IMG/VR virus record: IMGVR_UViG_3300032174_000007
Span: 1 to 62,323 of that record
Length of the DNA stretch: 62,323 nucleotides
Reading direction: 5' to 3' (one strand)
Source: a virus
Taxonomy: Duplodnaviria; Caudoviricetes
Part shown: in pieces, positions 1-61,121 of the stretch
Position numbering within the stretch: the stretch's first letter is position 1
How the letters are laid out: the number at the start of each line of letters is the position of its first letter
The notes under the pieces: generated by a model
The model's input: only the letters and a program-made list of their open reading frames with translations
Database searches by the model: none
Told to the model about the DNA's origin: nothing
Program-made: the position numbers and the translations under genes

Positions 1-167
1 CCTGACCCGAGGATTTCGGCAACGTCAAGGGGGCGCAAATTGGCTGCCAGCGCGTACAGATGTTGCGGGGTGGTCGGCTCGATTGAGTAACGGCGGCTGC
101 CATGGTGGTCGGGAAAGAACACCGCGCAGGGATCGATGGTGTGGCCGTTGGCTGCCAAGGGCGTCAT
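1..167 (-). CDS. 5' part of GNAT/T7-gp13-like virion protein (continues at window end)
   Basis: ATG at 167 reads open to position 1: MTPLAANG...YSIEPTTPQHLYALAANLRPLDVAEILGS, the typical N-terminus of the family whose C-terminal part is at 61925..62323. Confidence 0.7.
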   Translation of the reverse strand, partial: MTPLAANGHTIDPCAVFFPDHHGSRRYSIEPTTPQHLYALAANLRPLDVAEILGS

Positions 168-433
168 TTGGATCAAGGCTTCTCCTGCGATTGCGTCCCG
201 TCCGAGCGGTCAGGCATCGCCTCCCATGCCTCCACGGCAGCGCGGGCCACCTTGGGCGCATAGTGGCATCCGCACGCCGGGTAATGGCACTTGGCGGCAT
301 TGACCGCACCACAGCCACCGCGCACGGCGCGCGCCATGCGCGAGGGATGCGCTTTCTCCAGGCCCCACTCTGAGGGCCTATGATCACCGGTGATGTTCGG
401 GCGTTTTGCCGTGTCGGTCATTGTCCACAAATA
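167..433 (-). mobile_element. L/R cassette copy 1 with ~83-aa cargo ORF (173..424)
   Basis: L end ATTTGTGGACAATGACCGACACGGC..ACCGGTGATCA; R end CCTGACCGCTCGGA..AAGCCTTGATCCAAATG; ORF ends PDRSDGTQSQEKP. Confidence 0.8.
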
Positions 434-518
434 ATTTCTGTTTCTACGTCATCAACCGAACAGACAATCATCCCCGCCCCTGCTACCCGCCGCCCTCGTA
501 CCTGTCCGCGTCCGCTTA

Positions 519-558
519 CTCCCCACGGCTTACTGCCGGTCTCAGAGGCCGTGGGGAG
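519..558 (-). terminator. Hairpin just downstream of tail tubular B
   Basis: 11-bp inverted repeat CTCCCCACGGC...GCCGTGGGGAG; no clear U-tract. Confidence 0.35.
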
Positions 559-564
559 ATTCTT

Positions 565-3513: not shown

Positions 3514-3533
3514 GGCAACGCGCCGTCAGCGCA

Positions 3534-3845
3534 TCAGGTCTTCGCCCACGATAGTTTCGAGCGCAGCAGGTAACCTTCGAGCGCCCATATTTTGCTTCGG
3601 GCATTGTCGCGTGAAATCTTCTTGCCTATCTCGGCATCGAAGTTTTCAGGGGAAGCCGCCGCGCTCTCACCGACAACATGGAAGCCGTTGCGCAGAGTCA
3701 GGGCACAGACGGTCAAGGTCGTACCCGGAAAGACGTAAAAAGCTTCCGCGACGATCTGATCGTCGATGTGTGCTGGGCTTAGGCGCGGAGCATTGAGGCC
3801 CTTGCTCTGAATTTCCTTCTCGATCGCCTGTTCGTCTCTGCTCAT
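3534..3845 (-). CDS. Phage Gp49-family protein
   Basis: TLTVCALTLRNGFHVVGESAAASPENFDAEIG..IWALEGYLL signature. Confidence 0.85.
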   Translation of the reverse strand: MSRDEQAIEKEIQSKGLNAPRLSPAHIDDQIVAEAFYVFPGTTLTVCALTLRNGFHVVGESAAASPENFDAEIGKKISRDNARSKIWALEGYLLRSKLSWAKT

Positions 3846-4725
3846 GGTGTGCTTCCTCTTCGGGACGCCGAAAGCCGTTGAACGTCGCCGCTATATGCCG
3901 GGCCAGCGGCTGCGGTATCTTGGCGATCATGGCGCTGGCCATCTTGCGGGCGCGAGATTTGGAACTGTGGTTCCGCATTAGGGGCGTGTTGCCATCGTTC
4001 CCAGGACCGAACCAATCGCCGCCGCACTTGAGGCCTTCGCCTATCGCGGTACCGCGAGCCGGATTTGCCTGTTCGCTTGGCTTACCGTGGGCGATGGCGA
4101 ACCAGGAGCCGCCGTTGTTCTTGATGGCCTTCTCCGCCGTGGTGTTGAAGGCTTGTCCGGGCCGATGGCGCGGATCATCCGGGTGTTTCCAGTCCAGCCC
4201 GCCGACCTTCGTGGCCCGCCGCGTGATCGGCATCAGCGCCGGCACGTCGCCCCACAGATAGAACGAGCCGAAGTTCCAGCGCGCTCGCCCCACCCATTTC
4301 TGCGCCCCGCGCACGTTCTCCACGATCAGCGGGATTTTACGCCCAGCCGCCTCGCAAGCCTCCCGCTGGATACGAAAGCACGCCTCGAAAAGCGTATTGT
4401 CGGGCGGCGGCAACGCCTTGGCGCGCTTCCACGGCATGGCGCGATAGCTGTAGGCCTGGCAGGGCGGGGAGGCGACGATCAGCGCGGCGTCCTTGAATTG
4501 CGAGCCGTGGAGCGTGCGCACGTCCTGGATGACGAGTTGGCCGGGATAGCGGTGCTCGCCGTATTGGTGCCGCTCGATGTCGAAGCCGATGACGCGATAG
4601 CCTTCGGCGAGCCGGGCCTCGGTCCAGCCGCCGAGTCCGCAATAGAGATCAATGGCGGTCGGCTTGTTTGTTCGGGCCGCCGGCCTCTGATCACCAGTCG
4701 GACTCCCGAGCGGAACTTGTCCCAT
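3667..4725 (-). CDS. C5-cytosine DNA methyltransferase, starting inside a cassette L end
   Basis: AIDLYCGLGG (motif I), SPPCQ (IV), ENV (VI); begins MGQVPLGSPTGDQR; tail overlaps the Gp49 gene by ~180 nt. Confidence 0.75.
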   Translation of the reverse strand: MGQVPLGSPTGDQRPAARTNKPTAIDLYCGLGGWTEARLAEGYRVIGFDIERHQYGEHRYPGQLVIQDVRTLHGSQFKDAALIVASPPCQAYSYRAMPWKRAKALPPPDNTLFEACFRIQREACEAAGRKIPLIVENVRGAQKWVGRARWNFGSFYLWGDVPALMPITRRATKVGGLDWKHPDDPRHRPGQAFNTTAEKAIKNNGGSWFAIAHGKPSEQANPARGTAIGEGLKCGGDWFGPGNDGNTPLMRNHSSKSRARKMASAMIAKIPQPLARHIAATFNGFRRPEEEAHHEQRRTGDREGNSEQGPQCSAPKPSTHRRSDRRGSFLRLSGYDLDRLCPDSAQRLPCCR

Positions 4726-4727
4726 CA
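4682..4727 (-). repeat. Cassette L end, no R partner found
   Basis: TGATGGGACAAGTTCCGCTCGGGAGTCCGACTGGTGATCAGAGGCC. Confidence 0.85.
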
Positions 4728-5513
4728 CACCAGCACCCCACCCGGAAATCCCATCGAGTCCCACCCGTACCATGCCGTTGGACCGGTCAGGTAGCCGTAT
4801 GCAGTGCTCCCTCTCACAGCCATCCAATCTGGCAGGTGATCGGTTGTCGTCACCCCTTCGTTCCCATCCGAGATGCGCGCCTGCGTGATGATCGCAGCTG
4901 CAATCTCGATCTGCTCCTTGAGCACTTGCGCGTTACGCGCCAGTGGATTGACCAGCCATGCGCCCAAAGTCGCCGTTGCGGCATTCTGGAAATGCGGATC
5001 CCACAGGTCGGGGTCTAATATCCGCGCCGTGTAGACGAGCTGCGCGAATTCCAAATCCGTGAGGATGACCTTGATCTGGTTGCCGGCGGCATCGGTATCG
5101 ATCGCCACGGCGAACTTGTAGCCGACCGGGGGAAACCAGATGTTGGTCTGCATCACGCCGCCGCCGAGGATAGGTGGCGATTGCGATCCGGACTGCGGCG
5201 GATTGGGGATGAGATAGCGGGCAGCGAGGCAATCGGCCGGGTAGGCGTACTCATAACTGTACGGGATCGGCGGGACCGGCAGCGTGCCGTTGGGGTTCTC
5301 CGGCGTGCCAATCGCGGCCTTCAATAATGTGAGGCCGATTTGCTTGCGGGTACAGTTCCAGTGTGCGGCACGGTGCAGAGCGTCGATGCGGAGCTGGTAC
5401 TGCCTTGCGCAAACAGCCGCGTTCGGCGGCGGCAATGGCGGCGTTAGCGAACTCACGGAAAAACGTGCGCCTATGTTGTCCAAGGCTGCATTGACAATAT
5501 CGACCGGCGTCAT
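4725..5513 (-). CDS. Tail tubular protein A / adaptor (T7 gp11-like)
   Basis: VDIVNAALDNIGA..HWNCTRK..YEYAYPADCL..DPDLWDPHF motifs; position upstream of nozzle. Confidence 0.8.
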   Translation of the reverse strand: MTPVDIVNAALDNIGARFSVSSLTPPLPPPNAAVCARQYQLRIDALHRAAHWNCTRKQIGLTLLKAAIGTPENPNGTLPVPPIPYSYEYAYPADCLAARYLIPNPPQSGSQSPPILGGGVMQTNIWFPPVGYKFAVAIDTDAAGNQIKVILTDLEFAQLVYTARILDPDLWDPHFQNAATATLGAWLVNPLARNAQVLKEQIEIAAAIITQARISDGNEGVTTTDHLPDWMAVRGSTAYGYLTGPTAWYGWDSMGFPGGVLV

Positions 5514-5797
5514 TTCTGCTGCTCGCCATTCACTGAAGCCTTCGCAGCATCAGGCTTCTCATCCTGAAAGGCCGATCCGATGATCTCGGTGGCGTTGCCC
5601 ATGCCCGCCAGCATCGCGGCGAGCTCTTTCTCATTGGCGGCAACCTGGGAAAGGCCGGCCTTGAAGCGCGTCAAGGTCGCCTCGTAATTATCGAGGATCG
5701 GCCCGGCCTTCTCGGCAGCGCTGGCGGTATCGGCCATCAACGCTCGCGCCCGGGTAGCGTGCTCGGTGAGCCTTGCGATCGCAGCCGGTGTCGCCAT
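5510..5797 (-). CDS. Hypothetical helical protein
   Basis: ORF coupled to adaptor start; start uncertain. Confidence 0.5.
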   Translation of the reverse strand: MATPAAIARLTEHATRARALMADTASAAEKAGPILDNYEATLTRFKAGLSQVAANEKELAAMLAGMGNATEIIGSAFQDEKPDAAKASVNGEQQK

Positions 5798-5981
5798 GGG
5801 CTTTTTCAACTCTGCGATTGATTCGGTCAGATGCCGGTCGAGCGCAGCCGAAGCCGGCAAAACGTAGGGCGGACAGTCCCCAGGACACGCCCGGAGGTGG
5901 GCGGCAGCATCGCTATATGCACGTCACGCTGGCGCACGTCGCCCTCGCGGCGCAGCCCCGGCGGATCGGTGGCGTAGGTGC

Positions 5982-6287
5982 TCATCCGGTATGATCCTCG
6001 TATTCGGCGGCGGCTATGGCTTGTTCATCGGCCGCGATCTGCTCGCCGAGTTGATCTTGATTGGCTTCGGCTTCGTGGCCCTCCGCGTGCGACGGTCCCT
6101 GATCACCAGTGGCCACCTCGCCGCCAGCCGTGTCGGGACTGGTCTCAACTCCAATCCTTCCGGTCTCCGCTTCCATCACGATCTGCCGCGGCTTGTGCGC
6201 CAGCACCTCGGCAGGCTGACGATCAAGCACATCATCGCCCTTGCGCTCGACAATGGTTTCCTCAGCCAGCGTTGGAACACCCGTCAT
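5982..6287 (-). CDS. Acidic hypothetical protein containing an in-frame degenerate cassette
   Basis: ATGA-coupled ORF; ETSPDTAGGEVATGDQ segment matches the L end of copy 8265-8450. Confidence 0.55.
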   Translation of the reverse strand: MTGVPTLAEETIVERKGDDVLDRQPAEVLAHKPRQIVMEAETGRIGVETSPDTAGGEVATGDQGPSHAEGHEAEANQDQLGEQIAADEQAIAAAEYEDHTG

Positions 6288-6538
6288 GGCTTTGCCTCCT
6301 GTTGCGTCGAGATTGGCTTGCCGCTCTCGTCCACGATCTCATGGAGCGGCACATCGATCAACTCCCCGACCTGCCGGTTCGCATCAATCGGCGGGTTGGT
6401 GCCGTAGTCGATCTTGTCGTGGGATTTCCGCATCGATCGATACGGCCCCTTCCAATCATCAGGGACGGTTATGATCTCATCGCGAACGTAGCGATGATTG
6501 TCGATGAAGCATGCCTCCTTGAGCCGCACGCGCATCAC
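6284..6538 (-). CDS. Hypothetical head-region protein
   Basis: Coupled ORF with RBS. Confidence 0.6.
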   Translation of the reverse strand: MMRVRLKEACFIDNHRYVRDEIITVPDDWKGPYRSMRKSHDKIDYGTNPPIDANRQVGELIDVPLHEIVDESGKPISTQQEAKP

Positions 6539-6984: not shown

Positions 6985-7108
6985 CCGATTGGCGGCTTGA
7001 ACCTATGACTACACGGCTCGCCCACCGCATGGCATCGGATGCGTGTATTCCCTGCGGTCCACCGACGCCGAGCAGGGCGAAAGGAGGGCGAGCCGTAGCT
7101 GGATTGGA

Positions 7109-7703: not shown

Positions 7704-7885
7704 CGATCGCCGCGGCTGGCCTTCAATCCAACCTCGGCCAGTCTTGCCTGCTTGCCGAGCAGGCCCGGGGTGCGTTCCTTCGCCTTGGCGAATTCTGCCG
7801 TGGATTTTCCGGCGGCTTTGGCCTTGGCCTTGAACTGGCCGTGGCTGTTGGCGAAGGCTTGCTTCATCCAGTGCTTCTTGGCCAT
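7688..7885 (-). CDS. Small basic protein ending RGDRWYGK
   Basis: 65 aa, Lys/Ala rich, GGAG RBS. Confidence 0.7.
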   Translation of the reverse strand: MAKKHWMKQAFANSHGQFKAKAKAAGKSTAEFAKAKERTPGLLGKQARLAEVGLKASRGDRWYGK

Positions 7886-7889
7886 CGCG

Positions 7890-8087: not shown

Positions 8088-8265
8088 ACCAGCGGTCACC
8101 GCGGGTTGGCTTTCCGTCCTTCACGTGAGCCGGAAGCTTGCCGGGCTTGTCAGCTTGCGTGAACTCCTTGGCGACCGCAGGCTTGATACCCTTGGCAGCT
8201 GCGGCCTTTGGGTTGTTCTTGGCCCACCAGAACAGCTTGCGCTGAGATTGGGATACGGGCGGCAT
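8065..8265 (-). CDS. Small basic protein (MP..SQSQRKL family) with RGDRWYG
   Basis: ATG lies at the cassette R terminus; VAKEF..AD..KLP motif typical of small phage head-region proteins. Confidence 0.65.
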   Translation of the reverse strand: MPPVSQSQRKLFWWAKNNPKAAAAKGIKPAVAKEFTQADKPGKLPAHVKDGKPTRGDRWYGRGKDD

Positions 8266-8450
8266 TTGGATCAAGGAACCTCTTGCGCTTGCGTCGCCAC
8301 AGAGCGGTCAGGCGGCGGGATCAGTTGCTTCATGTCTGCGAGCGTCCATCTCATACGTTTATCGAAATGGACACTCTCAGCGGGTGGCGGACTCTGATCA
8401 CCAGTGGCCACTGGGCAGCCAGATTCAGCGGGACTGGTCTCCATCTCAAT
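8265..8450 (-). mobile_element. L/R cassette copy with 57-aa ORF (8271..8444)
   Basis: L variant GAGACCAGTCCCGCT..CACTGGTGATCAGAG; R CCTGACCGCTCTG..CCTTGATCCAAATG. Confidence 0.8.
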
Positions 8451-10825: not shown

Positions 10826-10833
10826 CTCTTGGA

Positions 10834-12892: not shown

Positions 12893-12905
12893 GGGGATAG
12901 TCCTT

Positions 12906-13015
12906 TTTGGATCAAGGCTTGCGCGGAGTGTTTGTTTGCTCTGAGCGGTCAGGGATCGCTAGATACAAACCTGCGATCACCAGTCGGGCTTCCAGAGCGG
13001 TCATTGTCCCAAATC
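12906..13015 (-). mobile_element. Minimal (near-empty) L/R cassette
   Basis: L and R separated by ~20 nt; encodes MTALEARLVIAGLYLAIPDRSEQTNTPRKP. Confidence 0.85.
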
Positions 13016-19669: not shown

Positions 19670-20083
19670 CTATCCGTAGCCTCCGCGTCCGGGGTTATAT
19701 CGCACTCGCTCGAAGCGGCGCAAGGGGTAGGCGGGACCGACGAGTTCATGGGAAAGGTCGTCTGCGGCCGGCGGTGGGGTGACGAAGAGGGGCGGAGCCG
19801 CGGATTCAGCGGCTTCTTCGACCCGGGATTCCAGAAGCGCATCCGTTGAGTTGGTTGATTGATCTGGATCAATGCCAGTCTGTGGGTGCCGGTCGTCCTG
19901 CGCGGTCACCAGACGCCGGGCGATATCGTCCCGCGGCATCGCCACCAGCCCGTTCATCATCTTGGTAAGGAGCGACCGCACCCAGGCGGCGTTGTCCAGC
20001 CCCTCGCGCTCGGCGCGTTCGCCGATCCAGGCCTCGAGCTCATCGCCGAGGCGAATCACCATGCGCTTGGTCAATGCGGCCAT
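19670..20083 (-). CDS. Ribbon-helix-helix-like protein containing a degenerate cassette R end
   Basis: KRMVIRLGDELEAWI..A.REGL..A.WVR; AGGAGG RBS; R-like sequence at 19861-19910. Confidence 0.6.
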   Translation of the reverse strand: MAALTKRMVIRLGDELEAWIGERAEREGLDNAAWVRSLLTKMMNGLVAMPRDDIARRLVTAQDDRHPQTGIDPDQSTNSTDALLESRVEEAAESAAPPLFVTPPPAADDLSHELVGPAYPLRRFERVRYNPGRGGYG

Positions 20084-23780: not shown

Positions 23781-23832
23781 CTGAGGGCCTCTGATCACCA
23801 GTCGGGTTCCCGAGCGGGACTTGTCCCATAAG
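23781..23832 (-). repeat. Cassette L end upstream of methyltransferase
   Basis: ATGGGACAAGTCCCGCTCGGGAACCCGACTGGTGATCAGAGGCCCTCAG; encodes MGQVPLGNPTGDQRPSA* coupled to the MTase ATG. Confidence 0.85.
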
Positions 23833-24803: not shown

Positions 24804-26020
24804 TCGGCAGCCTCGCTTGCGGCTTCGGCTTCGTTTCCCCATGCCGACCAACCGGGACGTGCCGCACCGCGGCAGTTCAACTCAACCTTGGGCAACGTCG
24901 GGAACAACCGCTCAATCATCTCCGGGAAAAACTCGGGTTTCTCAGAGTGAGTATGAACGAGCGCCTCAATGAGTGAGTTTTCCTGCGTTCCGGGCGCCGG
25001 AGCCGGTATCTTTCCGCGCGTGCCAACCAGGAGAATTTCGTGGCAATTGCGGAACCAATAGCCGGTTCCAACCGCTGACACACACGTTGACGTGCCAGCT
25101 AATTGCCGTAGCTTCCGCCATATCTGGTGGCTGCAATAATCGAAACCCCAGGCCCCCATGACTGTCAGAGCGTGCGGAAGCATGGGCACTGTGGCCCACA
25201 GGAACAGCACGCAGTCGTCGGCCGCAATGCTCGGCACGTCCCGGGAGGCGATAACCTCGGTACATGAGGTCGGATAGTGGTTGTCGGCAGCGCGATCCAT
25301 GCCAGTCTCGCGCGACCAGGGCTCGAAACGCCATTCGGGATCCGCGAGGATCACGCCGAATTTCTGCTGCGGCAGCGCACACTGAATGCCGCCCAGAACG
25401 CGCTCGCGGATGGCGCGGCGTTCCTTCTTCTCCTGCTGGCGCTCGGCGTGGGCCTCCTTGAGAACCGTTTTGTCGCCATCGATCGTGGCAACTGCAATCC
25501 GCTTGGCTTTGGCGATCTTGGCCTCTTGGGCGTCGAACGGAAGGGCGGCGAGTTGCTGCCAGCGGGAGGATTGAGTGCGGCTGATGTCGAGGTCGGAAAG
25601 TGTAGCAGCGTGCGACTCTTTCGGCCGCCCCTTTGGCCTCGCATCCCGCTCCGCAAGCTCGCGCAGGATTTCGCCGGATCGGATTTCGGCACGCAGTTTG
25701 ATCTCGGTCGCGCGGTCAATCAGTTCACGGTCCTTTGCCTGTTGAGCGTAGGTCTTGAGCGCAACTGCCTTGTCGCGGATGTCCTTGACCTCATCGATAG
25801 CCACGGCTTGGGCGAGGGCCTGGCGGGCGGTTTCGTACCATCCGAATTGGTTGGCTTGAACCGGGACGAGGGCGGTCTTGCGCTCCGCCTTCTCGATCGC
25901 GCGCCGCACCTTGTCCTTGTCCCAATTCATCGCCTTGGCGATGCGGATATAGCCCCAGGAGGGGTGCTCGGCCTTGAGGCGGAGGGCGCGGGTTGATTGA
26001 TTTGAATCAAGGCTTGGCAT
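24800..26020 (-). CDS. MT-A70 family adenine methyltransferase with N-terminal HTH/helical region
   Basis: [38 protein letters not shown]; probable ATG inside cassette R end. Confidence 0.85.
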
Positions 26021-26070
26021 GTGGGGGTGGGAGCTCTGAGCGGTCAGGGACCGCTTCTGATTATCGGTGG
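25999..26070 (-). mobile_element. Degenerate minimal cassette
   Basis: R end CCTGACCGCTCAGAG..CAAGCCTTGATTCAAATC; L remnant CCCACCGATAATCAGAAGC. Confidence 0.7.
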
Positions 26071-26817: not shown

Positions 26818-27113
26818 AGGATTTATGGACAATGACCGCTCTGGGAACCCGACTGGTGATCGCAGGCCGGAGGTTGAATTTGACAATTATGGGTCCCTCG
26901 TTGTTCGCCGCGGCGGTGCCGAATTTCGGCTCGTGCAAGATGGGAGAGTTATCCGCACAACCTTAAGTCGGCCGGACAAGCGCGGCTTTCGGACACCTCA
27001 CTACCGGGCGGTAAAGAGCCGATTTGCTGATCAAGTGCGCGATGCCATTCTCTCAATGATTCCTGACCGCTCGGAGCCTTCACACCCGTCGCGCACGCCT
27101 TGATCCAAATCCT
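26818..27113 (+). mobile_element. L/R cassette with 92-aa cargo ORF (26825..27103)
   Basis: AGGATTTATGGACAATGACCGCTC.. / ..CCTGACCGCTC..CCTTGATCCAAATCCT; ORF MDNDRSGNPTGDR..PDRSEPSHPSRTP. Confidence 0.88.
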
Positions 27114-37006: not shown

Positions 37007-37120
37007 AGATTTGGATCAAGGCTTTGCTTGCGGTTGCCTCAACTCGGAACGGTCACCAAGCGCCCCGGATGAGGGCCTCTGATCACCAGTCGGGTTCCCG
37101 AGCGGAACTTGTCCCATCAA
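37007..37120 (-). mobile_element. Minimal (empty) L/R cassette
   Basis: Encodes MGQVPLGNPTGDQRPSSGALGDRSELRQPQAKP (37016..37117). Confidence 0.88.
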
Positions 37121-45015: not shown

Positions 45016-45231
45016 TTGGTAAATGGGAGAGGACTTGTGACGGAAATCATCTATCGTAGCCCATTCTTTTGGGAAAAAATCGAGAGAGAGGTTGAGTTTC
45101 CATTCAGCGTCGGTGTGGGCGACATACTAACAGTTGGGCAGTTCCGACACATCTTCGAGCAGGGTTATGATTTCTCTAGCTCGGAGGAACTGATGGCCTA
45201 CCTAAAGCAGGAGAAGATTTATGGACAATGA
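45016..45231 (+). CDS. Low-GC hypothetical protein ending in a cassette L end
   Basis: Stops at GGA CAA TGA. Confidence 0.5.
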   Translation: MVNGRGLVTEIIYRSPFFWEKIEREVEFPFSVGVGDILTVGQFRHIFEQGYDFSSSEELMAYLKQEKIYGQ

Positions 45232-45616
45232 CCGCTCTGGAAGCCCGACTGGTGATCAGAGGCTGGCACTGTGGCGCGAGATAGAAGCGCGTCGAATAGA
45301 ACGAAATCTAAGGCTACCCACCGAGCAGGCGGCCATCAATGCGATGTTTGAAGCCCACGAACGCTTACGGGATTTTGGGTGGCGAGATATCATCTATTGT
45401 CCGAAGGATGGCACTGTTTTCCAGGTCATCGAGACAGGATCAACCGGCATCTTTGATTGTTATTATTCCGGAGAATGGCCGGACGGTTGTTGGAATGTGA
45501 TGGACGCCAACGACGTTTATCCATCATCAAAGGGGCCAACGCTCTTTCGGCTCAAGCGTGCTGAGACCCCTGACCGCTCAGAGCCGACACAACCATCGCA
45601 CAAGCCTTGATCCAAA
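45215..45616 (+). mobile_element. L/R cassette with 129-aa cargo ORF (45221..45610)
   Basis: ORF MDNDRSGSPTGDQR..GWRDIIYCPKDG..PDRSEPTQPSHKP. Confidence 0.9.
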
Positions 45617-45632
45617 AAGAAGCCGCCACGCC

Positions 45633-46397: not shown

Positions 46398-46697
46398 ATG
46401 GATGAGGAGTTTCCTAGTGGTGCCTTGATCACCGTCAAACTTGAAATCCGTGTTCCTATTGCCTCGACTCGCAGCCAAATCAATGAGTGGCTAAACTACA
46501 ACTGCCTACAGAGTGGCGGCATAGGTCTTGACAATCCACTTTACAATAAAGAACCAGACGCTTTTGGTCCCCGGCCGCTCGCCTTTGAATATTCCGGAAT
46601 GGTGGGGCGCCGGGAGGAATTTGATCACGAAAATCGTCCAGATGGACGATATTACAAGGTGAGATGGATACGCGAGAGGGCACCGCCCAAGCCTTGA
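46398..46697 (+). CDS. Hypothetical protein ending in a short cassette R end
   Basis: AGGAGG RBS; ends AAG CCT TGA TCCAAATC (46688-46705). Confidence 0.65.
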   Translation: MDEEFPSGALITVKLEIRVPIASTRSQINEWLNYNCLQSGGIGLDNPLYNKEPDAFGPRPLAFEYSGMVGRREEFDHENRPDGRYYKVRWIRERAPPKP

Positions 46698-46703
46698 TCC
46701 AAA

Positions 46704-46901
46704 TCACTTCGGCCTGAGCCCATGCTTCGCCGCCACATGATCCTTCGGCAGGAACGGCGCCCGCGGCTTGACGTGATGCTTGTGCATCTTCACCCGCTTG
46801 GGCGCGTTCTGCGGCGGGATCGGCGGCCGGTGTATGGGTTCTGCGCTCAGAGGCGCCGGCACAAGCTGCCCTGGTTTCTGTTCCTCGCTCATTTTTTCCA
46901 T
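46704..46901 (-). CDS. Small basic Pro/His-rich protein
   Basis: High-GC minus-strand ORF between two plus-strand islands. Confidence 0.5.
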   Translation of the reverse strand: MEKMSEEQKPGQLVPAPLSAEPIHRPPIPPQNAPKRVKMHKHHVKPRAPFLPKDHVAAKHGLRPK

Positions 46902-55400: not shown

Positions 55401-57047
55401 GGATGGAATTTCAGCTTTGCTCACGGACTTGTGATGATCGACGGCGGCGTTGGGATCGACGTGAGGATCGGGCGGCGGATTCTTGACCGTCTCGTGCTCG
55501 ATCTTGGCGAGGTAGCCGTCGATTTCCTCGGTGTAGGCTTTCCAGGAGACGCCATCGGCTTCGACTGCGGCGCGCTCGGCCGGGGTGGCGCGGTTGGTAT
55601 GGGCGGCGTCGTAAGGCATTCCAGCCACCATGGCGGCGCGCTCATCCTGTTCATGGATGGTCAGGTATTTGTGCAGGTTGGCGGGATTGCCGTCCTTGTC
55701 CTTGAGGATAGGCGAGAATTCCGGGATGCGCGGGTCGATATAGGTGACGCCAGGGGTATCCTTGCTGGCAACCGCGCCGGAGCGCACGTCATGGGTGGTA
55801 TCGACGGCCCCGACCGCGCCCGGCTCCTGTTTCACGTGAAACAATGTGGGCGCGATCGTCCGCTCGGCGTCCTTGTAGGTCTTGGCCACCTCGGGGGCGA
55901 GCTCGGCCAGCCGCTTGTCGATGCCGGCGAGGTTGGCCTCGATCTCCTGGCGGGTTGCGGCCTTCTCAGGCGTCAGGGCGGGTTCCGCGGCGAGGTCGTT
56001 CGCCCAATTGCGGAATGTGGCCTGCCGCTCCTTGAGCGCGTCGTATTCGCCGAATAGGGGAAAGTCGAGCTGGCGGGCGACGGAGTGGATATCGGCGACG
56101 GCCGGAGTGACGGGCGCGGGAGCCGGCGGGATGGGTGCCCCTTCCTGGGGTGTGATGCCGGCCTTCTCCTGTGCCTCCCGCTCGGCCTGCAACTGCTTGA
56201 TGGCCATCAGCGCCCGATCCACCTCGGGCACATCTGCGGTCTGGGCGGTGCCTTTCCAGGCCGCCTCGCCGCCCGGGCCGATGATCTTGAGATAGCGCGC
56301 CGCCTCGATCTGATGCGGCCCGGGTGCCTCCAGCATGGCCCCCTGGAGCATGATGTTGATGTCTTGGGCGAGCCGGCCGGGGGCGCCTCCTGCCAAGCCA
56401 GCCTGATCCGCTAGTGCCGCAATCTCGCCGGCCGCACCGCCGATCACCATGCCCGGGGCGCGGATGGCGCTCTCGGCTCCGGCCAGCAGCGCCTTGGCGC
56501 GCGGGCCTAAATATCTGAGGATCGGAAACCGCTCGATATCCGCTGGCGTAATCCCCGGCGGCTTTTCGCCGAAGCCTTCCTTGGCGGCTTCCCAGGTGGT
56601 CTCAAGGAACCTGCGGGCCTGCTCCTGCTGCTCGGGTGAAGCCGCGTTGGTGAACGGATGCACATGCGGCCACAGCAGGACTTGGCTTGCGACCTTGGCG
56701 AAGCTGTTGCGGCTTGTCTCGTAGTCCTTCCAGGCCCCGGAGAGTTTCATGAAGTCTCTGGTTTCATCGGAAGGTGGTGGGGCGCCCCAATTATCCTTGG
56801 CACCTTGGCCGAAGGCGTCGAGCACGCGGGCTTGCGGGGCGACGGCGGCGTTTCCGAAGATCATATCGGCGATCGGGGAGGCACCGTGCAGCGGGCGCGG
56901 AGTGGATGGTGCGGGCTTGTCGGGGAACAGCGTCTCCACCTCGGGGAGGGGCTTGTCGGGAAAGAGGTCGTTAACGTCCGGTAGGCCGGCGGCGGCCTGA
57001 GGCGGCGCGGCAGGCGACGGAGAGGTTGAGAGGGTGGGGTCGGCCAT
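49464..57047 (-). CDS. Giant internal virion (ejection) polyvalent protein
   Basis: ~2527 aa; HExxH metallopeptidase (STLLHEPAH..ESFARGFE), EIQSDW domain, LPD38-like C-terminal region. Confidence 0.8.
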   Translation of the reverse strand: MADPTLSTSPSPAAPPQAAAGLPDVNDLFPDKPLPEVETLFPDKPAPSTPRPLHGASPIADMIFGNAAVAPQARVLDAFGQGAKDNWGAPPPSDETRDFMKLSGAWKDYETSRNSFAKVASQVLLWPHVHPFTNAASPEQQEQARRFLETTWEAAKEGFGEKPPGITPADIERFPILRYLGPRAKALLAGAESAIRAPGMVIGGAAGEIAALADQAGLAGGAPGRLAQDINIMLQGAMLEAPGPHQIEAARYLKIIGPGGEAAWKGTAQTADVPEVDRALMAIKQLQAEREAQEKAGITPQEGAPIPPAPAPVTPAVADIHSVARQLDFPLFGEYDALKERQATFRNWANDLAAEPALTPEKAATRQEIEANLAGIDKRLAELAPEVAKTYKDAERTIAPTLFHVKQEPGAVGAVDTTHDVRSGAVASKDTPGVTYIDPRIPEFSPILKDKDGNPANLHKYLTIHEQDERAAMVAGMPYDAAHTNRATPAERAAVEADGVSWKAYTEEIDGYLAKIEHETVKNPPPDPHVDPNAAVDHHKSVSKAEIPSAAGAGTLESARAPAGGAAGTPVLPGAPAAPQLPQGQSIATPAMFTTIADAEERKLVAIGIPAEQAQAAAAINAQRYADRALRFEGKKGTAAELYAADPLRYRGEGTRYRDLAADRGTGARAPGAEARARGGRRTLKPEAERSLFEQLAALGGLKPTPELRQILGKNPMIGGGFGPLLRKSGMDLDHAVEALKESGHMFDRADIEGTEAKVGHVELLDLIDKEARGEKQFIHGFEPAQAIDVDEELHRMMGKLETHLAAAGIDPASVSEKIKDRAVEIMDREGVTDPGVAYERAVMEEPEFAQAARRPVEPGLFAEREAEGQQVLPGGERISDAELAQRRADQALKPKAEQKPMDIGLFGDAAKQRELFQARQVPWSYSAVARAVESARQEKASPQQWLATLKNTPGVKSEEMDWLGLPDWLKEQKGSVTKQEIADYVRANAIEVREVEHRQTGPSGWNTQGSTKFETYRLPGGENYRELLLTLPAGPSEAQRFRDALAEKYEPRGGNFVDHATQEERDELYRLMERPREDQFKSSHWDEPNVLAHVRFDDRVIDGKKTLHLAEIQSDWHQKGRKQGYAGEGRSVAEIDRDVDDTRTELLHREPSINANSPGDWHDAWLKHPDLNRRHGELMRERDRATHGGVPDAPFKTTWPELALKRMIRYAAENGYDRLSWDSGDTNAERYDLSKQIQSVRWNETTGDFQAKDHSGEVVVRRKATAEELPDLIGKDVAQKLLDQKPTEIKMLPHVYKEYLTVEQTEHQYIVRNVDGRQVDIGKGTVQSEAEAREYAERYFNNKAAEINRNRELAGQKIGIHRELSGLDLKVGGEGMKGFYDKILPAAGSKLGKKFGAKVGEARVPTFDQRDIDVPFVVRDRAGQIVERGIHDESYAQHLVESEYPGGSYAFDETVGMEGTAPVHTLDITPELREAATSQGFPLFQTKRGKIRFLNDGTSIITYFRDANASTLLHEPAHKWLEELMDDARDPDAPPDLKADAKTVLDWFKVDKAEDIRERHHESFARGFEIFMMEGRAPSQAMAKVFAKFRDWLLEIYKTIDNLIKEARETGAGKEFVGISDEMRGVYRRLLASREHEAIITPERPTAQGFADIHEAEAERLPPQEVYPAMVTAQSERDRIAATHAPEEEENRLADTGRKPAGEGAPGGPPGGAQSDRDGNAPGPVGGEAGVAAQPGALGAGGGEGEGEGASASKVARSEVPTDPNVRFGPSDSGATDKAGNIRLDKLNGPDDFDIAIREAAERTGGFMAERRHVITDGQALDLADAMGMDPAFLDLKKIGDAFNQQEIIVAKRLLIQSATDVRDLMKQAATGDEHDLMALAAAIARHEMIQGKVAQATAEWGRAGRALNLIIGGQKEAADLSRFLQENTGRTLFQIKEMAQYGQHLPTPSNVSRLIADTAGGKIKRAVIFYYVNALISGPITHMRYAVGNALNAVFTPLVEIPYSAASGAIREALGYDTAGKRVYLGEAGAQLYGLLKGSVDGLRAGVDAWHSGQTINLPGQRAPTVQFSEHNINPIPGAIGAAIGLPVKGVAAIHSFFAALRYEQNIQGLAYRQAMGEAAADMPSRIAQLTAHPTDAMMASASRDALKELYMAPTDYHSKWAGLVRFTNNNLLAKIIVPFMKIGSQITRNAIIERTPIGIFDKEFRANLGRGGADFDIQMGKVAAGMGLMGASVLMMAEGLMTSDGPTDPRQRQVWLLNHKPNTIQIGGLSIPYAHLGSLGMLMGFAANMYETAAGWGEEDGDKLAVAFMQGITRSILNETWMRGAKDMLDAVFHPEEFGGQYIRNFVTNWIPYSVGLGQVARVVDPYQREVRTIFDSARAKIPFVSEGLFPRRDMFGEPIPTAGPLPSYANDPVVKAMDAIHLSVGRLARKIRGVPLTDQQYHDYARVAGKMAKMALNRLVAVPGFQQMPDALKAIEMHKEITAAHERAANMIMMQSASGPESIIRKAIEVKRAPLQGKATAVH

Positions 57048-57131
57048 TTGGATCAAGGCTTGGCTTGTGGGTGGATCAACTCTGAGCGGTCAGGGATCGT
57101 TGTGGGGACGATTGCAGAAGTGTCGTGCAGT

Positions 57132-57572
57132 TCAACGTCGCTCAAGGATGAGCAATCCGCCTTGGGTGTAGCCGGCCCGACGCCAGCCGGCCCGCAGAAA
57201 GCAATATCCAGGATTCGTGCTCCGGACCTTCTCCGGATGGACCTTGGTGTAATGCCTCTCACCAGGCCAGCAGTGATCAGCGATTGCGTCAGCCTGCTTG
57301 ATAAGCTCTGAACTTTGGTAGCGGCGGGGTGCCTCGTTGCGGAAGCAAGAGCATTCGATGCCTTCCTGCTTTGGGATTGTGTCATCGATATACTTTCGCC
57401 AAATAAACATGGCGTCGGCGTCGGCGGTTCGCAGGAAGATGACAAAACCGGGACCGGCGCATTGGGTGCGCTCCCGGCCGTCCGCGTACCGATTGCAGCT
57501 GTAGTGGCGCTCATAAAGTTCCAGGCAAGACTTGTCGCCGTCCCTCGTCAGATACCAAAGCGGCTCAAGCAA
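57132..57572 (-). CDS. Mom-like (GNAT-fold) DNA-modification protein
   Basis: LYERHYS..FRNE..SSELI..YT.V..S.NPGYCF..AGW; family call from memory. Confidence 0.55.
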   Translation of the reverse strand: MLEPLWYLTRDGDKSCLELYERHYSCNRYADGRERTQCAGPGFVIFLRTADADAMFIWRKYIDDTIPKQEGIECSCFRNEAPRRYQSSELIKQADAIADHCWPGERHYTKVHPEKVRSTNPGYCFLRAGWRRAGYTQGGLLILERR

Positions 57573-57789
57573 CGACCGGGCCTTTCCAACGCAGAACGCA
57601 GCCGTGATGTCCAGGCGCTGGTATGCAATGCACGATGCCGGCTGAATCCGTGACGCGATGCGTGGTGCTGTCGGCGCGAAACTCAACACTGATCGGGCTG
57701 TGAATGCGGTATGGCGTCGGCCGCCCATCAAATTCGTATTCGCGCCATTCCTCGACGCCAGCCAGTTCGATCTTTTTCAGGTCACTCAT
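57565..57789 (-). CDS. Hypothetical cargo protein
   Basis: AAGGAG RBS; WREYEF..THRV.D..G..H. Confidence 0.7.
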   Translation of the reverse strand: MSDLKKIELAGVEEWREYEFDGRPTPYRIHSPISVEFRADSTTHRVTDSAGIVHCIPAPGHHGCVLRWKGPVVA

Positions 57790-57888
57790 TTGGTCTCCTT
57801 TGTAACTTCCGCTCTATTCCCGTATCGTCCCCAGCCTCCGGCCTCTGATCACCAGTCAGGCTTCCAGAGCGCTCATTGTCCCAAAATC

Positions 57889-60492
57889 CTACTGGCTCAT
57901 CGGCAATTGAGGTGTCGGTGCTGGCGGCGGCGGTCCCCATTTCGCCCATCCCCTGGCAACAGCAATCTCCTGCGCCTGTGCCTTGCTGACTTGTCCAGCA
58001 TGATAGGCATTCACAAGACTTGGAAGATCGCGCACGGTCTTGGGATCAAATGCTGGCTGTGCTCCCGGTTGCGTAGCCCCCGGCGCGCCCCACCATTGCG
58101 ATGGCCGCAGGAAGGACGGAATGCCGAGGCTGAATCCGCTCGATGGCGCCGCAGCTGGCGGTTGATCCTGCATCACGTCGGAAAACCACGTAGCCGGATC
58201 GCGCACGAAGCTTGGAATGGCCTTGCCCAGATAATCCGGGCTGTCGGGATTGAGCAGTTGTGCCGGTGACTTGCCGGCCCGCTTGCCGGCCTCGTAGGCC
58301 GGGAAGAAATTGGCCTGAAACTTGAGAAACTGTTCCTCGCCTTTTGGATCCTTGAGGCCAATACCCTCATCCTGCCCGGTGATCTGCTTCCTCGCATTGA
58401 GCAGGAACTGCTTGCGCATGTCGGATTCCGCTTCGCCACCCGGCAACTGCTTGTCCTGCAATTCCTTCGCAAGCTCCTTTGCCCCCGCGAGCGTGAGGTC
58501 ACCGCCCGGCCCGGCGCGCCGGTAAATCTGAGTCGCGTCGGTGATCCGCGCCTCATCGCCAGGTGGAGCGTGAATAGCCGTGTACGCGCCCCAGAAGCCC
58601 TTGCCATAGGTCGCGGCCTCTTTCTCCACATCGGATCCGGAGTGCTTCTCGGCCAAGTCCCACAGGATAGTCCGCGATTCCGGCGTTAACGACTGATCGT
58701 TGGCGATCTGGTCGATGATGCCTTTCATGTCGCCCTTCATCATGCGGGTGACATAGCCGTCGCGGGCTTGCTCGCTGGCTTCCTTGCGCGCCTTGGCGGT
58801 CGCATCGGCGGCGACTTGTGCGGCGGTCACGGCCTGGTTGATGACGGTCAGCGCCCGCTCGCGCGCCTCTGGGGTGGCGTTTTCCCAATCGGGATGGTTC
58901 ATGACCGTCTGGTAGGCGGATTGCTTGATGCCTTGTGCGGTTGTCGTTGGGACGGGGGGCTGGCCCGCTCCTGTCGGCGGCGTGATCACATCGCCACCCG
59001 TCGCGACGACTGGGGTCGCCGCCATCGCGCCCTGCTCGCCGCCCATCTTGGTTTGATAGATGCCGACGAGTTGCCGCGAGGTCACAAAGTCCACTGCGGC
59101 CTTCTGCGTGGCCGAAAGGTCGCTCCAGCGCCGCGCAACAGTGAGACCTAAGCGCGCTTTATCCTGATCGGGAATGTTGCCCCAGATCGCTTGGCGGCTC
59201 CAATCGAGGCCCTTCTGGCGGCCCTCGCCGGTCGTCGCCATGTTCTGCGCCGCGGAGCCACCAGGGTTTGCAAGATGCGCATCGTAACCGGCGGCACCCT
59301 GCTGATGGATCATGTAGATGTCGGTCGGCGTGGCAGGGCGACCGTGGGCCGCTTGGAACGCTTGCTGCTCGGCCTGTAGTTTCTTCGCCGCCGCACGCGC
59401 ATTGTCGAGCGGGTTGTGGATGTCGCCGCCGCCGTAGCGGTCGAATTCAGATTGCGAGAGTTGGAACAGTCCCTTGTAGCTTCCGGTATCGGATTCAAAG
59501 CCGGGACGGCCGCCGCTTTCGATGTGGGCAATCTGCGTGAGGAGCCGCGCATCAAGCCCGCTTTCCGAGGCCGCTTGGCTGATCGCCTGTTGGACCGGCC
59601 CACTCATCTTCGGTGCGCCGGCTGCCATCCCTCCCGCAGCCGTCTGGCCGATCGCCCACTGGCCCATAGCATCGCCGACGCGCTGCGTCTTGTGGGCCGC
59701 AAGCATCCCCTCGATCTGCACGGCAGAGGTAGGGTCGATCTGACCTTGATACTTCTTGAACAAGTCCTCTGCCACACCGTGAGGATCGCCCTGCGCAAGG
59801 CTCGTTCTGATCGCCTCTTTCACATAGACGCCGGTGAACTTGTCGGTTCTCTGTTTGATGACGGCAGCCCCATCCGGCGTAGTGTGATCGAAGCCTTCGG
59901 CTTCTGCCTGGTTAACAACCTCCATCCGGCCGTTGGTGATGTGATCGAAGAAACCTTGCGGGTCCGTCTGGCTCCAGGAGAACAACGCCTGACTGCCGCG
60001 GCTTTCCACGTTGGCGGCGGCGACAGTGCGAAAATATTGCTTCTGCGCATCAAGTGCGCGCTCGCTCCCGTACCACAGATAACGATCCGTTTGGCTCGAC
60101 AGCGCTGGCGCCAGCCGCTGCTTCTCCTGCAAGCTCGGCGCCAGCGCCATGTATTTTGCATTGAGGGCGGCGAGATCATCCTTGAGCTTCGGCAGGGCGA
60201 GCATTCGCGCCTGTCCTTCGAGCGCGGTGAAGTTGGTGAACAGGTCGGTTGCTTCTCTGCCGTGTGAGGTCAAAAGTTGTGAGGAGTGAACATCATTTAT
60301 ACGCTCTTGCGCCTGTGTCGCGTAGTCGATCGCCGCAACGCCGGCCTTCTCCAATCCAGTGCCGAATTCCTTCTCGGCCTGCGCTGGAAAGCCGCCGAAC
60401 ATCTCGGGCGAGGTGCGGATATTCTCGAAGTCCCCACCAGGGGCACCCGTGGGGTTTACGGTTGGGATTTGGGCGTCGAGGATGTGAGGCAT
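57889..60492 (-). CDS. Internal virion protein with lytic transglycosylase-like domain
   Basis: IAHIESGG..YKGLFQLS..Y.IHQQG. Confidence 0.8.
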   Translation of the reverse strand: MPHILDAQIPTVNPTGAPGGDFENIRTSPEMFGGFPAQAEKEFGTGLEKAGVAAIDYATQAQERINDVHSSQLLTSHGREATDLFTNFTALEGQARMLALPKLKDDLAALNAKYMALAPSLQEKQRLAPALSSQTDRYLWYGSERALDAQKQYFRTVAAANVESRGSQALFSWSQTDPQGFFDHITNGRMEVVNQAEAEGFDHTTPDGAAVIKQRTDKFTGVYVKEAIRTSLAQGDPHGVAEDLFKKYQGQIDPTSAVQIEGMLAAHKTQRVGDAMGQWAIGQTAAGGMAAGAPKMSGPVQQAISQAASESGLDARLLTQIAHIESGGRPGFESDTGSYKGLFQLSQSEFDRYGGGDIHNPLDNARAAAKKLQAEQQAFQAAHGRPATPTDIYMIHQQGAAGYDAHLANPGGSAAQNMATTGEGRQKGLDWSRQAIWGNIPDQDKARLGLTVARRWSDLSATQKAAVDFVTSRQLVGIYQTKMGGEQGAMAATPVVATGGDVITPPTGAGQPPVPTTTAQGIKQSAYQTVMNHPDWENATPEARERALTVINQAVTAAQVAADATAKARKEASEQARDGYVTRMMKGDMKGIIDQIANDQSLTPESRTILWDLAEKHSGSDVEKEAATYGKGFWGAYTAIHAPPGDEARITDATQIYRRAGPGGDLTLAGAKELAKELQDKQLPGGEAESDMRKQFLLNARKQITGQDEGIGLKDPKGEEQFLKFQANFFPAYEAGKRAGKSPAQLLNPDSPDYLGKAIPSFVRDPATWFSDVMQDQPPAAAPSSGFSLGIPSFLRPSQWWGAPGATQPGAQPAFDPKTVRDLPSLVNAYHAGQVSKAQAQEIAVARGWAKWGPPPPAPTPQLPMSQ

Positions 60493-60719
60493 GTAAACTC
60501 TGCTTGCGGGTGGCCCGTCTCGTCGAGCACCACATCATTTTCGTACGGAATATCGCCGATTGAACATGTGAGTTCACCACTCAAAGAGGCAGTAACAAGA
60601 GCCTTCAGGCGCCGAACCGCTTCCTCAGGCGATCTTGCTCGAATGTCGAAGGAGCAACCCTCACCTTCGAACTCGTAACCGCACATATAGTTGTGCCAGC
60701 CTTTTCTGGGGTATTTCAT
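60456..60719 (-). CDS. Moron between duplicated gene starts
   Basis: Lower GC; YEFEG..FDIRARSPEEA..RL. Confidence 0.6.
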   Translation of the reverse strand: MKYPRKGWHNYMCGYEFEGEGCSFDIRARSPEEAVRRLKALVTASLSGELTCSIGDIPYENDVVLDETGHPQAEFTCLTSSTPKSQP

Positions 60720-60802
60720 TTCATAATCTGCTCGAAGTCCCCGCCGGGGGCACCGGCGGGAGCTACTGTCGGGAGTTGCGCGTCGAGGATGTGGGGAGCC
60801 AT
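60716..60802 (-). pseudogene. Displaced duplicate 5' end of the 867-aa virion gene
   Basis: MAPHILDAQLPTVAPAGAPGGDFEQIMK* versus MPHILDAQIPTVNPTGAPGGDFENI. Confidence 0.85.
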
Positions 60803-60805
60803 GTT

Positions 60806-61121
60806 AGATTTGGATCAAGGCTTGGCTTGCGTGTTTGTTTGCTCTGAGCGGTCAGGAAACATCTGTATTTTGAGGCAATTCTGGCAGCCTCATCCAATGT
60901 GTAGGCTCAAAACAAACTGTGTCGCTTGAATGTGCGTGACGCCATCCAGAAACAACACCTAGGCGGTAGGCTGTCACACAAAATTTCTCTCCCAAACAAG
61001 CAAGTAAAACAGTTTTACAAAACGGCGCCGTCTCGATTTCTTGCCAGCCTGTCTCAGCAAAGAGCATGCGATCACCAGTCGTGATCGGGCGTTTTGCCGT
61101 GTCGGTTATTGTCCCGAATCT
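60806..61121 (-). mobile_element. L/R cassette with DUF551-like cargo (60852..61067)
   Basis: L AGATTCGGGACAATAACCGACACGGCAAAACGCCCG..ACTGGTGATCG; R CCTGACCGCTCAGAG..TTGATCCAAATCT. Confidence 0.88.

Follow-up and report, generated by a model that had tools for sequence, protein, structure and literature searches.

Dispersed accessory-gene cassettes with two conserved, translated ends in a soil podovirus genome: possible translation-preserving boundary modules

The virus genome in IMG/VR record IMGVR_UViG_3300032174_000007, which comes from soil and is rated 100% complete, was analysed over its whole length of 62,323 bases (hereafter the window). Dispersed along it are two conserved modules of about 45-50 nucleotides (nt), which we call L and R. 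In eight places they form a pair, with L upstream and R downstream on the strand of local transcription, and the cassettes that they bound contain unrelated accessory open reading frames (ORFs) or no cargo at all; elsewhere one of the two stands by itself. In most cassettes a single frame runs from the one end to the other, the occupancy of the gene junctions in which the cassettes lie differs between relatives, and the same ends recur in phage contigs with different backbones.

The genome is podovirus-like and has 61% G+C. It encodes a T7-type tail protein, a portal, a major capsid protein, a protease/scaffold, internal virion proteins of 867 and 2527 amino acids (aa), an endolysin and three DNA methyltransferases (C5, N6/N4 and MT-A70). 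A separate 1.6-kb metagenome contig (L345) joins the two ends of the window (1 and 62323) at 100% identity with 7 extra bases, so nothing sizeable is absent from the window, and the record is, to judge by this join, a complete genome that is permuted or was circularly assembled. The phage is present in two soil DNA runs from two studies, and no RNA run is listed. The nearest isolated phages have capsid identities below 40% and mixed hosts; the host is likely alphaproteobacterial because the genome encodes a GcrA homologue, the sole basis for this assignment.

The modules are far more frequent than chance would have them. TGACCGCTC, which belongs to L, occurs 11 times where 0.83 occurrences are expected, and none of 100 shuffles reaches 11. 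When up to three mismatches are allowed, the R end AAGCCTTGATCCAAAT is matched 10 times (0.41 expected; 0/100 shuffles) and the L core CCCGACTGGTGATC 19 times (8.2 expected), eight of the 19 with no or one mismatch. An independent de novo repeat search yields the same families (D1, D2 and D6 for R; D3, D4, D12 and D17 for L). All eight two-ended copies that an earlier note on this DNA had listed are present, and every copy follows local transcription, as that note also said and as can be read from the ORF map. Beyond the window the element is rare: all scans pooled gave six other contigs with ends, one of them from the same phage as the window. The first two IMG/VR scans, with 14-15-mers, returned more than 100 matches that were mostly due to chance, the genuine ones being contigs L069, L191 and L193, and an IMG/VR pattern that allows a gap of 6-7 retrieved the same two contigs as one with fixed spacing.

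On the element strand, L reads (A)TTT-(A)TGG(G)ACAA-TGACCGCTC or GTYCCGCTC-..-CCCGACTGGTGATC-NN-AGG. The window copies that follow a same-strand gene start at its stop or at most 10 nt from it; cassette 4 has no same-strand gene upstream. Three upstream ORFs even end on L's own ..GGA CAA TGA/TAA (..LGQ-stop, ..SGQ-stop and ..CGQ-stop), and in the two L copies in which TGA has become TAA the stop is retained. The ORF that L opens starts with ATGGGACAA.. (MGQVPLGNPTGDQRP), with ATGGACAATGACC (MDNDRSGSPTGDQR) or with an ATGA overlap (ATGACC..). Four DNA-distinct subtypes of L lead to the same peptide, TGD(Q/R/H)RP, in 17 copies from five sources. The codons ACT GGT GAT..AGG are fixed at the same time, although ACT, GGT and AGG make up only 6%, 13% and 6% of their codon families in this genome. 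The convergence on one peptide together with the fixed rare codons indicates that L is constrained both at the peptide and at the nucleotide level. Two copies without an R, at 23782 and in L193, are leader ORFs of 17 codons in which an AGAGG or GGAGG lies 8 nt ahead of a start that overlaps as ATGA.

R consists of CCTGACCGCTCNGAG, exactly 18 variable bases and AAGCCTTGATCCAAAT. Among the window copies the blocks have a median likeness of 87% and 94%; the spacer, composed of 29% A, 44% C, 19% G and 8% T, is 44% alike. In one frame R reads A-hydrophobic-P-D-R-S-E-x6-K-P-stop, where I, V, L, M or F fills the hydrophobic position, serine uses all four synonyms, arginine is CGC or CGT and leucine CTC or CTT; one relative has TAA instead of TGA. 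Over five codons this frame shows 7 synonymous and 8 non-synonymous differences; for the two remaining frames the figures are 3/16 and 5/13. CCT, 8% of its codon family, is kept twice. The stops lie in CC-TGA-CC and CCT-TGA-TCC and close two of the three frames; the distal one is followed by TCCAAA(T), and R ends in TGATCCAAAT. In three window copies, including that before the gene for the 2527-aa protein, the next start lies 5 nt past the distal TGA (TGATCCAAATG). In nine further copies (window cassettes 3, 4, 5, 6 and 8, the single block at 46689, L069 and both copies in L341) the ATG that we take as the next start lies 6-30 nt past the distal stop. Thus, 12 of the 15 R copies read have a start nearby, the exceptions being L346, the R at 26000 in the window, and L193, where the start is unclear.

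Two-ended cassettes number 12 in all, eight in the window, one in L193, two in L341 and one in L346. In nine of them, a single ORF extends from a start inside L to the distal stop of R. Six of these nine carry cargo that is fused at both ends (window cassettes 1, 2, 4 and 6, the second cassette of L341 and that of L346), and the other three are empty units of 30-34 aa that use two different frames of L. That two L frames reach the same stop in the empty units points, as far as these frames tell, to selection for an open frame rather than for one peptide. In the remaining three cassettes (window cassettes 7 and 8 and L341 cassette 1), the cargo is in other frames and stops at or before the proximal TGA of R. 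The cargo families in the window comprise a Cys-rich 82-aa protein, a weakly N4-gp8-like ORF, a DUF551-like protein, phrog_24928 together with a 74-aa ORF, and a C5 methyltransferase; those in other contigs are a DHH/DHHA1 phosphoesterase, a DUF1281-type protein and a 121-aa protein. Contig L069 (873-2379) has a gene for an RtcB-type RNA ligase that begins with ATGGGACAA, as does one L subtype; after it come a tRNA-Pro gene, directly before R, and then the start codon (ATG) of the gene downstream.

The cargo of L346, the DHH/DHHA1 protein, is 324 aa long. Among the 120 homologues listed, 119 measure 262-335 aa and align to 79-93% of its length, and the 120th is the identical protein. The 18-aa amino-terminal extension of the cargo is absent from all nine homologues that were aligned, which start where it ends, and the position of the native ATG reads ATA in L346. 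The 14-aa carboxy-terminal extension has no counterpart in eight of the nine, while the ninth has a short unrelated tail. This case shows that the cassette ends are add-ons to a complete protein.

The eight cassettes of the window are as follows. Cassette 1 (166..433, minus strand) combines an L of subtype MTDTAKRP..TGDHRP (about 382-433) with an R at 166-214; its cargo, the Cys-rich 82-aa ORF (173-421, minus strand), is in frame with both ends, and ...CCAAATG at 166 contains the ATG with which the following core gene starts. Cassette 2 (8264..8450, minus strand) has the diverged L subtype METSPAESGCPVATGDQSP and a 57-aa ORF that runs to the distal stop of R, and its R (8264-8313, minus strand) supplies the ATG of the next gene, 8065-8265. 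Cassette 3 (12905..13015, minus strand) is empty and 110 nt long: the upstream gene 13001-13390 ends on L's TGA (..LGQ-stop), a 30-aa ORF leads from an overlapping ATGA start to R's distal TGA, and the ATG of the next gene is 19 nt beyond. Cassette 4 (26818..27110, plus strand) heads a plus-strand island and contains a 92-aa ORF (26825-27103) in frame with both ends; its R is followed, after 23 nt, by a DUF968/HNH-like gene (27134-27544). Cassette 5 (37009..37120, minus strand) is again empty, with a 33-aa ORF, MGQVPLGNPTGDQRPSSGALGDRSELRQPQAKP and a stop, from the ATG of L to the distal stop of R. Cassette 6 (45215..45617, plus strand) contains a 129-aa ORF (45221-45610) in frame with both ends, and a helix-turn-helix (HTH) gene, 45633-45842, follows its R. 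In cassette 7 (57046..57890, minus strand), L comes after the TAG of the gene for the 867-aa internal virion protein, two cargo ORFs, 57565-57789 and 57132-57731 (phrog_24928), use other frames, and R supplies the ATG of the 2527-aa gene at 49464-57047. In cassette 8 (60808..61121, minus strand), finally, the upstream ORF 61106-61351 ends on L's TAA (..SGQ-stop), the DUF551-like cargo runs from an ATG 2 nt after GGTGATC to the proximal TGA of R, and a 15-codon ORF (MFPDRSE..KP-stop) spans R.

Two side observations concern the surroundings of these cassettes. At ~505-550 (minus strand), just after the 982-aa tail gene, there is a perfect G+C-rich hairpin of 11 bp that lacks a T run, and the 17-codon ORF that follows it ends on the L of cassette 1. 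Just after the R of cassette 8, at 60726-60796, there is a copy of the first ~24 codons of the gene for the 867-aa internal virion protein (the other copy is at 60419-60489, 80% identity); the two bracket an 87-aa ORF (60456-60719), an arrangement that looks like the footprint of a single-crossover insertion.

The single ends that had been listed in the earlier note held up in part. Genuine are those at 4682 and 23781 (both L), at 25999 (R) and at 46688 (distal block of R only). The first belongs to an L-only insertion (3514..4727, minus strand), with an L (4682-4727) that begins by overlapping, as TGATG, the stop codon of the tail gene before it, a C5 DNA methyltransferase-like ORF (3667-4725, minus strand) in frame with L, and a right end without R. 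The methylase-family match of this ORF covers residues 16-150 only, so the insert may hold a truncated methylase and a second gene; a 103-aa ORF (3534-3845) overlaps its 3' end by about 180 nt. At the second L-only site (23782..23829, minus strand), the 17-codon upstream ORF, MGQVPLGNPTGDQRPSA and a stop, overlaps with its stop (ATGA) the start of the N6/N4 DNA methyltransferase gene 22445-23779, and L's AGAGG stands 8 nt before that ATG. The R-only site (26000..26049, minus strand) lies at the junction of the GcrA homologue (26061-26522) and the MT-A70 methyltransferase (24800-26083/26104). The distal block at 46689..46704 (plus strand) is AAGCCTTGATCCAAAT and makes the ..KP-stop end of a 99-aa ORF (46398-46697). 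The end placed near 6100 is L-like and diverged: the stretch 6081..6160 (minus strand), VETSPDTAGGEVATGDQGP, lies in frame inside ORF 5982-6287 and is kin to the L of cassette 2 (D7, 73% over 78 nt). The end at 19861 (19861..19907, minus strand) is doubtful, a weak R-like match with many mismatches inside ORF 19670-20083, which is conserved in relatives.

The peptides spelled by L and R raise the question of whether it is the protein ends that matter. L (15-18 aa, ..TGDxRP) and R (13-16 aa, A-hydrophobic-PDRSE..KP) might tag unrelated accessory proteins for a common fate, such as being packed in the procapsid and co-injected, being degraded at a set time, or binding to one shared partner. Six cargo cassettes in frame at both ends are unlikely to arise by chance, a complete DHH enzyme has been extended that has homologues without extensions, R varies as coding sequence in exactly the frame of the tag and with conservative hydrophobic swaps, the DNA-distinct subtypes of L retain TGDxRP, and one methyltransferase bears the L peptide without that of R. 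On the other hand, the cargo is unfused in 3 of the 12 two-ended cassettes, two L-only sites are separate upstream ORFs, the R of L069 follows a tRNA gene and so cannot be the tail of a protein, two of the three empty cassettes use another frame of L, and the fixed rare codons speak for a constraint at the nucleotide level. Moreover, in a set of 5.8 billion proteins none of 50-161 aa has three five-residue words in common with the 92-aa ORF and its tags; these are hence not a signal in wide use. We hold this explanation to be unlikely, yet a serious rival, and it is compatible with exchange of the cassettes by recombination. Rather less probable is an extended version, according to which L and R form a portable expression-and-tagging socket of a soil phage community, in which ORFs are translated by read-through, receive common terminal peptides and share a destination. 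If it applied, methyltransferases, nucleotide phosphodiesterases and counter-defence proteins, for example, would be packed in the procapsid and injected with the DNA, and one element would combine a cargo-loading signal with a format for gene exchange.

The same features could, in principle, be those of paralogous small genes that diverged in place, with their ends kept alike by gene conversion and without any cassette behaviour. The empty units are indeed small ORFs, and both ends vary as coding sequence. However, the cargo belongs to unrelated families (DHH/DHHA1, DUF551-like, DUF1281, phrog_24928, methyltransferases and a tRNA), which comes close to a refutation, every member is absent from four complete relatives, and the DHH cargo has hundreds of untagged homologues. 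We regard this as the most improbable of the explanations considered.

Relatives of the phage were retrieved through the capsid protein (26 loci, 10 of them at 81-83% identity). The four complete ones, G001, G002, G003 and G004 (63-64 kb), were searched with two-block patterns for L and R, which match 9 and 11 times in the window; there was no match in G001, G003 and G004, and a single R-pattern match in G002 is due to chance. Single-block patterns, the only ones applied to a fifth relative, G005 (48 kb), gave nothing better than two-mismatch matches there or in any of the five. None of the cargo ORFs, that of cassette 1 included, has a homologue in four relatives. At three junctions the empty state can be read directly, and it is tight: the genes that flank cassette 3 overlap by 8 nt in L261, and the flanking core genes meet as TGAATG and, for cassette 1, as TAGCATG in G001 and G004. 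The tail genes on either side of the insertion at 3514..4727 are 0-1 nt apart in G001, G002 and G004 and about 14 nt apart in G003.

Contig L346 stems from a closer relative, with three genes at 72-88% amino-acid identity to the window. Its cassette follows the homologue of gene 41, where the junction in the window is empty; before the homologue of gene 36, where the window has cassette 4, L346 has a different gene in a tight junction and no cassette. The comparison of filled and empty junctions that the earlier note had called for reveals variable occupancy, and the insertion-like behaviour with unrelated accessory cargo that it had proposed is borne out for the units bracketed by L and R. 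L193 has other terminase and portal families, and L and R are all that it has in common with the window. A single HTH gene (46% identity) is common to L341 and the window, and in L069 it is the GcrA homologue alone (42%); in L191, at 50% G+C, a degenerate L is all that matches.

Three of the relatives, G001, G002 and G004, have a dispersed motif of their own, ~70 nt long and present in 15 copies (for example at 735/1199, 4758/5910, 59474/59849 and 29071 in G001). The copies mostly form convergent pairs, which bracket a DUF5131 gene and segments of 0.3-0.45 kb with small ORFs; one such ORF sits directly upstream of the gene-36 homologue, the position that cassette 4 takes in the window. The motif could be a transposon-like or a regulatory bracket, and the bracketing of accessory ORFs may be more widespread among these phages, each lineage having brackets of its own. 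Kinship with L and R was rejected: an nhmmer profile of the 15 copies finds nothing at L or R, and its best matches (E 6.6 and 9.8) lie elsewhere.

Insertion always at gene junctions, and the presence of the ends in backbones with no or one detectable gene in common, would also be expected of a non-autonomous transposable or site-specific element (integron-like, MITE-like or insertion sequence (IS)-like, or homing; MITEs being miniature inverted-repeat transposable elements) that is moved by an enzyme encoded elsewhere. The consensus outer ends do form short imperfect inverted repeats, and the DUF968/HNH-like gene adjoins cassette 4. The inverted termini described in the earlier note are, however, a property of the consensus (7+3 of 12 bases), since the outer five bases of L differ from copy to copy. 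About 75 window ORFs were scanned against PHROGs and/or Pfam, and there was no integrase or transposase among them; nor is there a target duplication at the three junctions that can be compared with relatives. On both of these points the earlier note was right. The elements range from 110 to 845 nt and carry unrelated cargo, eight stretches tested for folding show no hairpin (z-scores), 50,697 phage and 72,556 plasmid records contain no match to the minimal element, and the HNH-like gene is also present in relatives that lack L and R. A copy with a recombinase or transposase as cargo, which that note had suggested looking for, was not found in the window, L193, L341, L346 or L069. Correspondence to an IS or MITE is not supported, as neither target duplication nor a uniform size is seen; the terminal repeats hold for the consensus and vary in their outer bases between copies. 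The earlier note's proposal of a capture-and-delivery element akin to integron cassettes or mobile insertion cassettes is thus partly supported, as far as the cassette is concerned, while site-specific capture finds no support: there is no integrase, no attC hairpin or core, and no attI array. As L and R are two different translated modules, they are not one recombination site. Overall, our data make a mobile element of this kind very unlikely.

The strict architecture of R, two invariant blocks at a fixed distance of 18 nt, resembles bipartite binding sites, and L and R might accordingly be cis-regulatory signals of this lineage (regulator sites, RNA processing signals or unusual promoter/terminator pairs) with no role in mobility. 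Their homogenisation within genomes looks as if they were read by a genome-encoded factor, their orientation matches transcription, GcrA-like and NusG-like regulators and three DNA methyltransferases are encoded in the window, the R-bearing contig L069 also has a GcrA homologue, and G001, G002 and G004 carry their own unrelated 70-nt motif at some similar junctions. The direct tests, however, argue against such a role. On the element strand, no sigma-70-type promoter or intrinsic terminator was found on L or R in 1-20000, judged by E. coli-type consensus only; promoter-like sites in this region number 2 versus 4.9 expected, one of them in the L of cassette 1, on the plus strand and thus opposite to the element. 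The eight stretches fold no better than their shuffles (z -1.0 to +1.1), no Rfam 15 family reaches its gathering score on L or R (the only hit is the tRNA in L069), and GANTC sites are not consistent across L or R. The exact L pattern has 26 hits in the genomes of 185,579 species, scattered over phyla and all without the GGACAA context, and the open frame of the empty L-R units would be left unexplained. A regulatory role without mobility is, in our view, improbable. As far as the exact L pattern shows, the same 26 hits rule out a host chromosomal motif. A Chi-like site or a translational bypass, considered from the letters alone, also appears improbable, as the orientation tracks transcription and not genome polarity and the flanking genes are separate in relatives.

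Together, our data suggest a model, to which we assign a probability of roughly 0.45, in which L and R are translation-preserving boundary modules of moron-like cassettes that are exchanged by homologous recombination. L would take over from the upstream gene, beginning near its stop or supplying it, and would open a new frame from its own ATG, while its purine runs, which resemble Shine-Dalgarno (SD) sequences, would serve whatever comes next. R would close two frames and present an 18-nt stretch that is rich in C and A and poor in structure, its end lying 5-35 nt before the start of the next gene or containing that start. Ribosomes would thereby be passed across the insert, so that a cassette could be tolerated between translationally coupled genes and the downstream gene would still be translated. 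Being ~45-50 nt long and highly alike, L and R could double as homology arms, and cargo would be gained, lost or swapped when copies recombine, be it inside one genome or between phages that infect the same cell. The ends are mosaic: cassettes 3 and 8 pair near-identical R spacers with different L subtypes, and the subtypes combine freely. They are also homogenised within genomes, as both copies in L193 read GGAATCCCGAC, both R copies in L341 AAAGCGCTCGGTGACC, and both L copies there GATCGCAGGCCC. The length of the modules, their free combination, the homogenisation and the variable occupancy all fit with an exchange by homologous recombination. Anatomy, frames, variable occupancy and the occurrence of the ends in different backbones are observed; the translational hand-over, the recombinational exchange and the movement of the cassettes we infer from these patterns.

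Several findings weigh against this model. No R-L circle, precise excision product, autonomous copy or junction that is polymorphic within one population was seen. The assembled contigs of the two soil runs break at the repeats, and their joints, with short sides of 21-45 nt at 85% likeness, are indistinguishable from other copies and give no usable information on circles or excision. The hand-over has exceptions, since the cargo of cassette 7 stops 76 nt before the next ATG without a relay ORF and the next gene in L346 lies ~130 nt past R. L-only and R-only sites occur. R varies as coding sequence and the four L subtypes converge on one peptide; a mere adaptor needs no conserved peptide, so this conservation is left unexplained by an adaptor role. 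The SD-like reading of GGTGATC/TGATCC relies on an rRNA sequence that we take to be the relevant one, and TGATC within 20 nt upstream of starts outside the cassettes is at chance level, which leaves this reading unsupported. Finally, the ORF scans identified no single-strand annealing protein, only a PD-(D/E)XK exonuclease.

In logic, the cassettes are PeSL-like, but they are neither PeSLs nor integrons. PeSLs (promoter-early stem-loops) of T4-type phages are short conserved sequences among non-essential ORFs, each a single repeated unit in which a sigma-70-like promoter is joined to a terminator stem-loop; as has been shown experimentally, their copies recombine, so that genes are inserted, deleted or replaced, and mini-circles have been shown as well (PMC2839356; a further PeSL paper is PMC4122927). 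With PeSLs, the elements described here have in common that dispersed short conserved sequences provide one format for modular gene shuffling. They differ in comprising two distinct modules that are translated and that bear the stop and start codons of their neighbours, without a detected promoter or terminator on the element strand and without a detected fold; nor were mini-circles seen here.

The concept of morons, in lambdoid and other phages, is said to come from Juhala, Hendrix and colleagues. Classical morons have their own promoter and terminator and no common flanks. An extra gene between genes that are adjacent in relatives, seen here at three junctions, is moron-like, whereas the two conserved flanks are not, and the cassettes have no detected promoter or terminator of their own and seem to ride on the translation of the operon. 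Integron cassettes depend on IntI, an attI array and one attC per cassette, a hairpin-folding imperfect palindrome with RYYYAAC/GTTRRRY cores. They resemble the present cassettes in their promoter-less single-gene cargo of unrelated function, the common format and the orientation with transcription; here, however, there is neither IntI among the ~75 ORFs nor an attC hairpin or GTTRRRY in the consensus of L or R, and the copies, with two different ends each, are scattered over 61 kb at many junctions with no attI array. The ultra-small mobile elements of mycobacteriophages (MPME) and bacterial MITEs are of uniform length, with clear inverted repeats and insertion footprints. They too are small elements with short inverted ends in phage genomes or intergenic DNA, but the present ones span 110 to 845 nt, carry cargo, vary in their outer bases and leave no duplication. 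Engineered bicistronic designs use translational coupling through a leader cistron with an embedded SD sequence and an ATGA overlap, much like the 17-codon leaders at 23782 and in L193; in contrast to such designs, L and R are natural, dispersed and two-ended, and their role is a proposed one. That the cassettes amount to a new form of recombination-shuffled morons, with translated and translation-preserving ends, seems to us a tentative proposition, at slightly less than even odds.

A few further observations on the genome are worth recording. At the 3' end of the terminase nuclease ORF, D10 repeats of 31 bp (16946-16976, 17174-17204 and 17364-17394; two identical, one 71%) delimit small ORFs, a second way of adding small genes, via a duplicated core-gene end. 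The large terminase itself is split into two ORFs ~196 nt apart, the N-terminal ATPase part at 18310-19161 and the nuclease part at 17367-18113, and tblastn places a similar gap in relatives; a divergent linker, a frameshift or some intervening element may account for it. GATC occurs 498 times in the whole window where ~220 are expected from base composition. Near the three DNA methyltransferases lie the GcrA homologue 26061-26522 (E 6e-32), a NusG-like ORF (20197-20826) and a DUF5131 protein (23838-24803), a neighbourhood that suggests a transcriptional control linked to methylation in an alphaproteobacterial host.

Phage genomes are mosaic, but how small accessory genes enter their tightly packed, translationally coupled operons without harming them is poorly understood. 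If L and R are indeed translation-preserving boundaries, they would constitute a sequence-defined entry and exit format for the addition of genes, with modules long enough to serve as recombination arms, and would extend the PeSL idea from the transcription signals of T4-like phages to translation-level adaptors in soil podoviruses of an unrelated group, whose hosts are probably alphaproteobacteria. Accessory and counter-defence genes could then be found in metagenomes by searching between L and R, and the modules would provide a natural, ready-made insertion site for engineering such phages.

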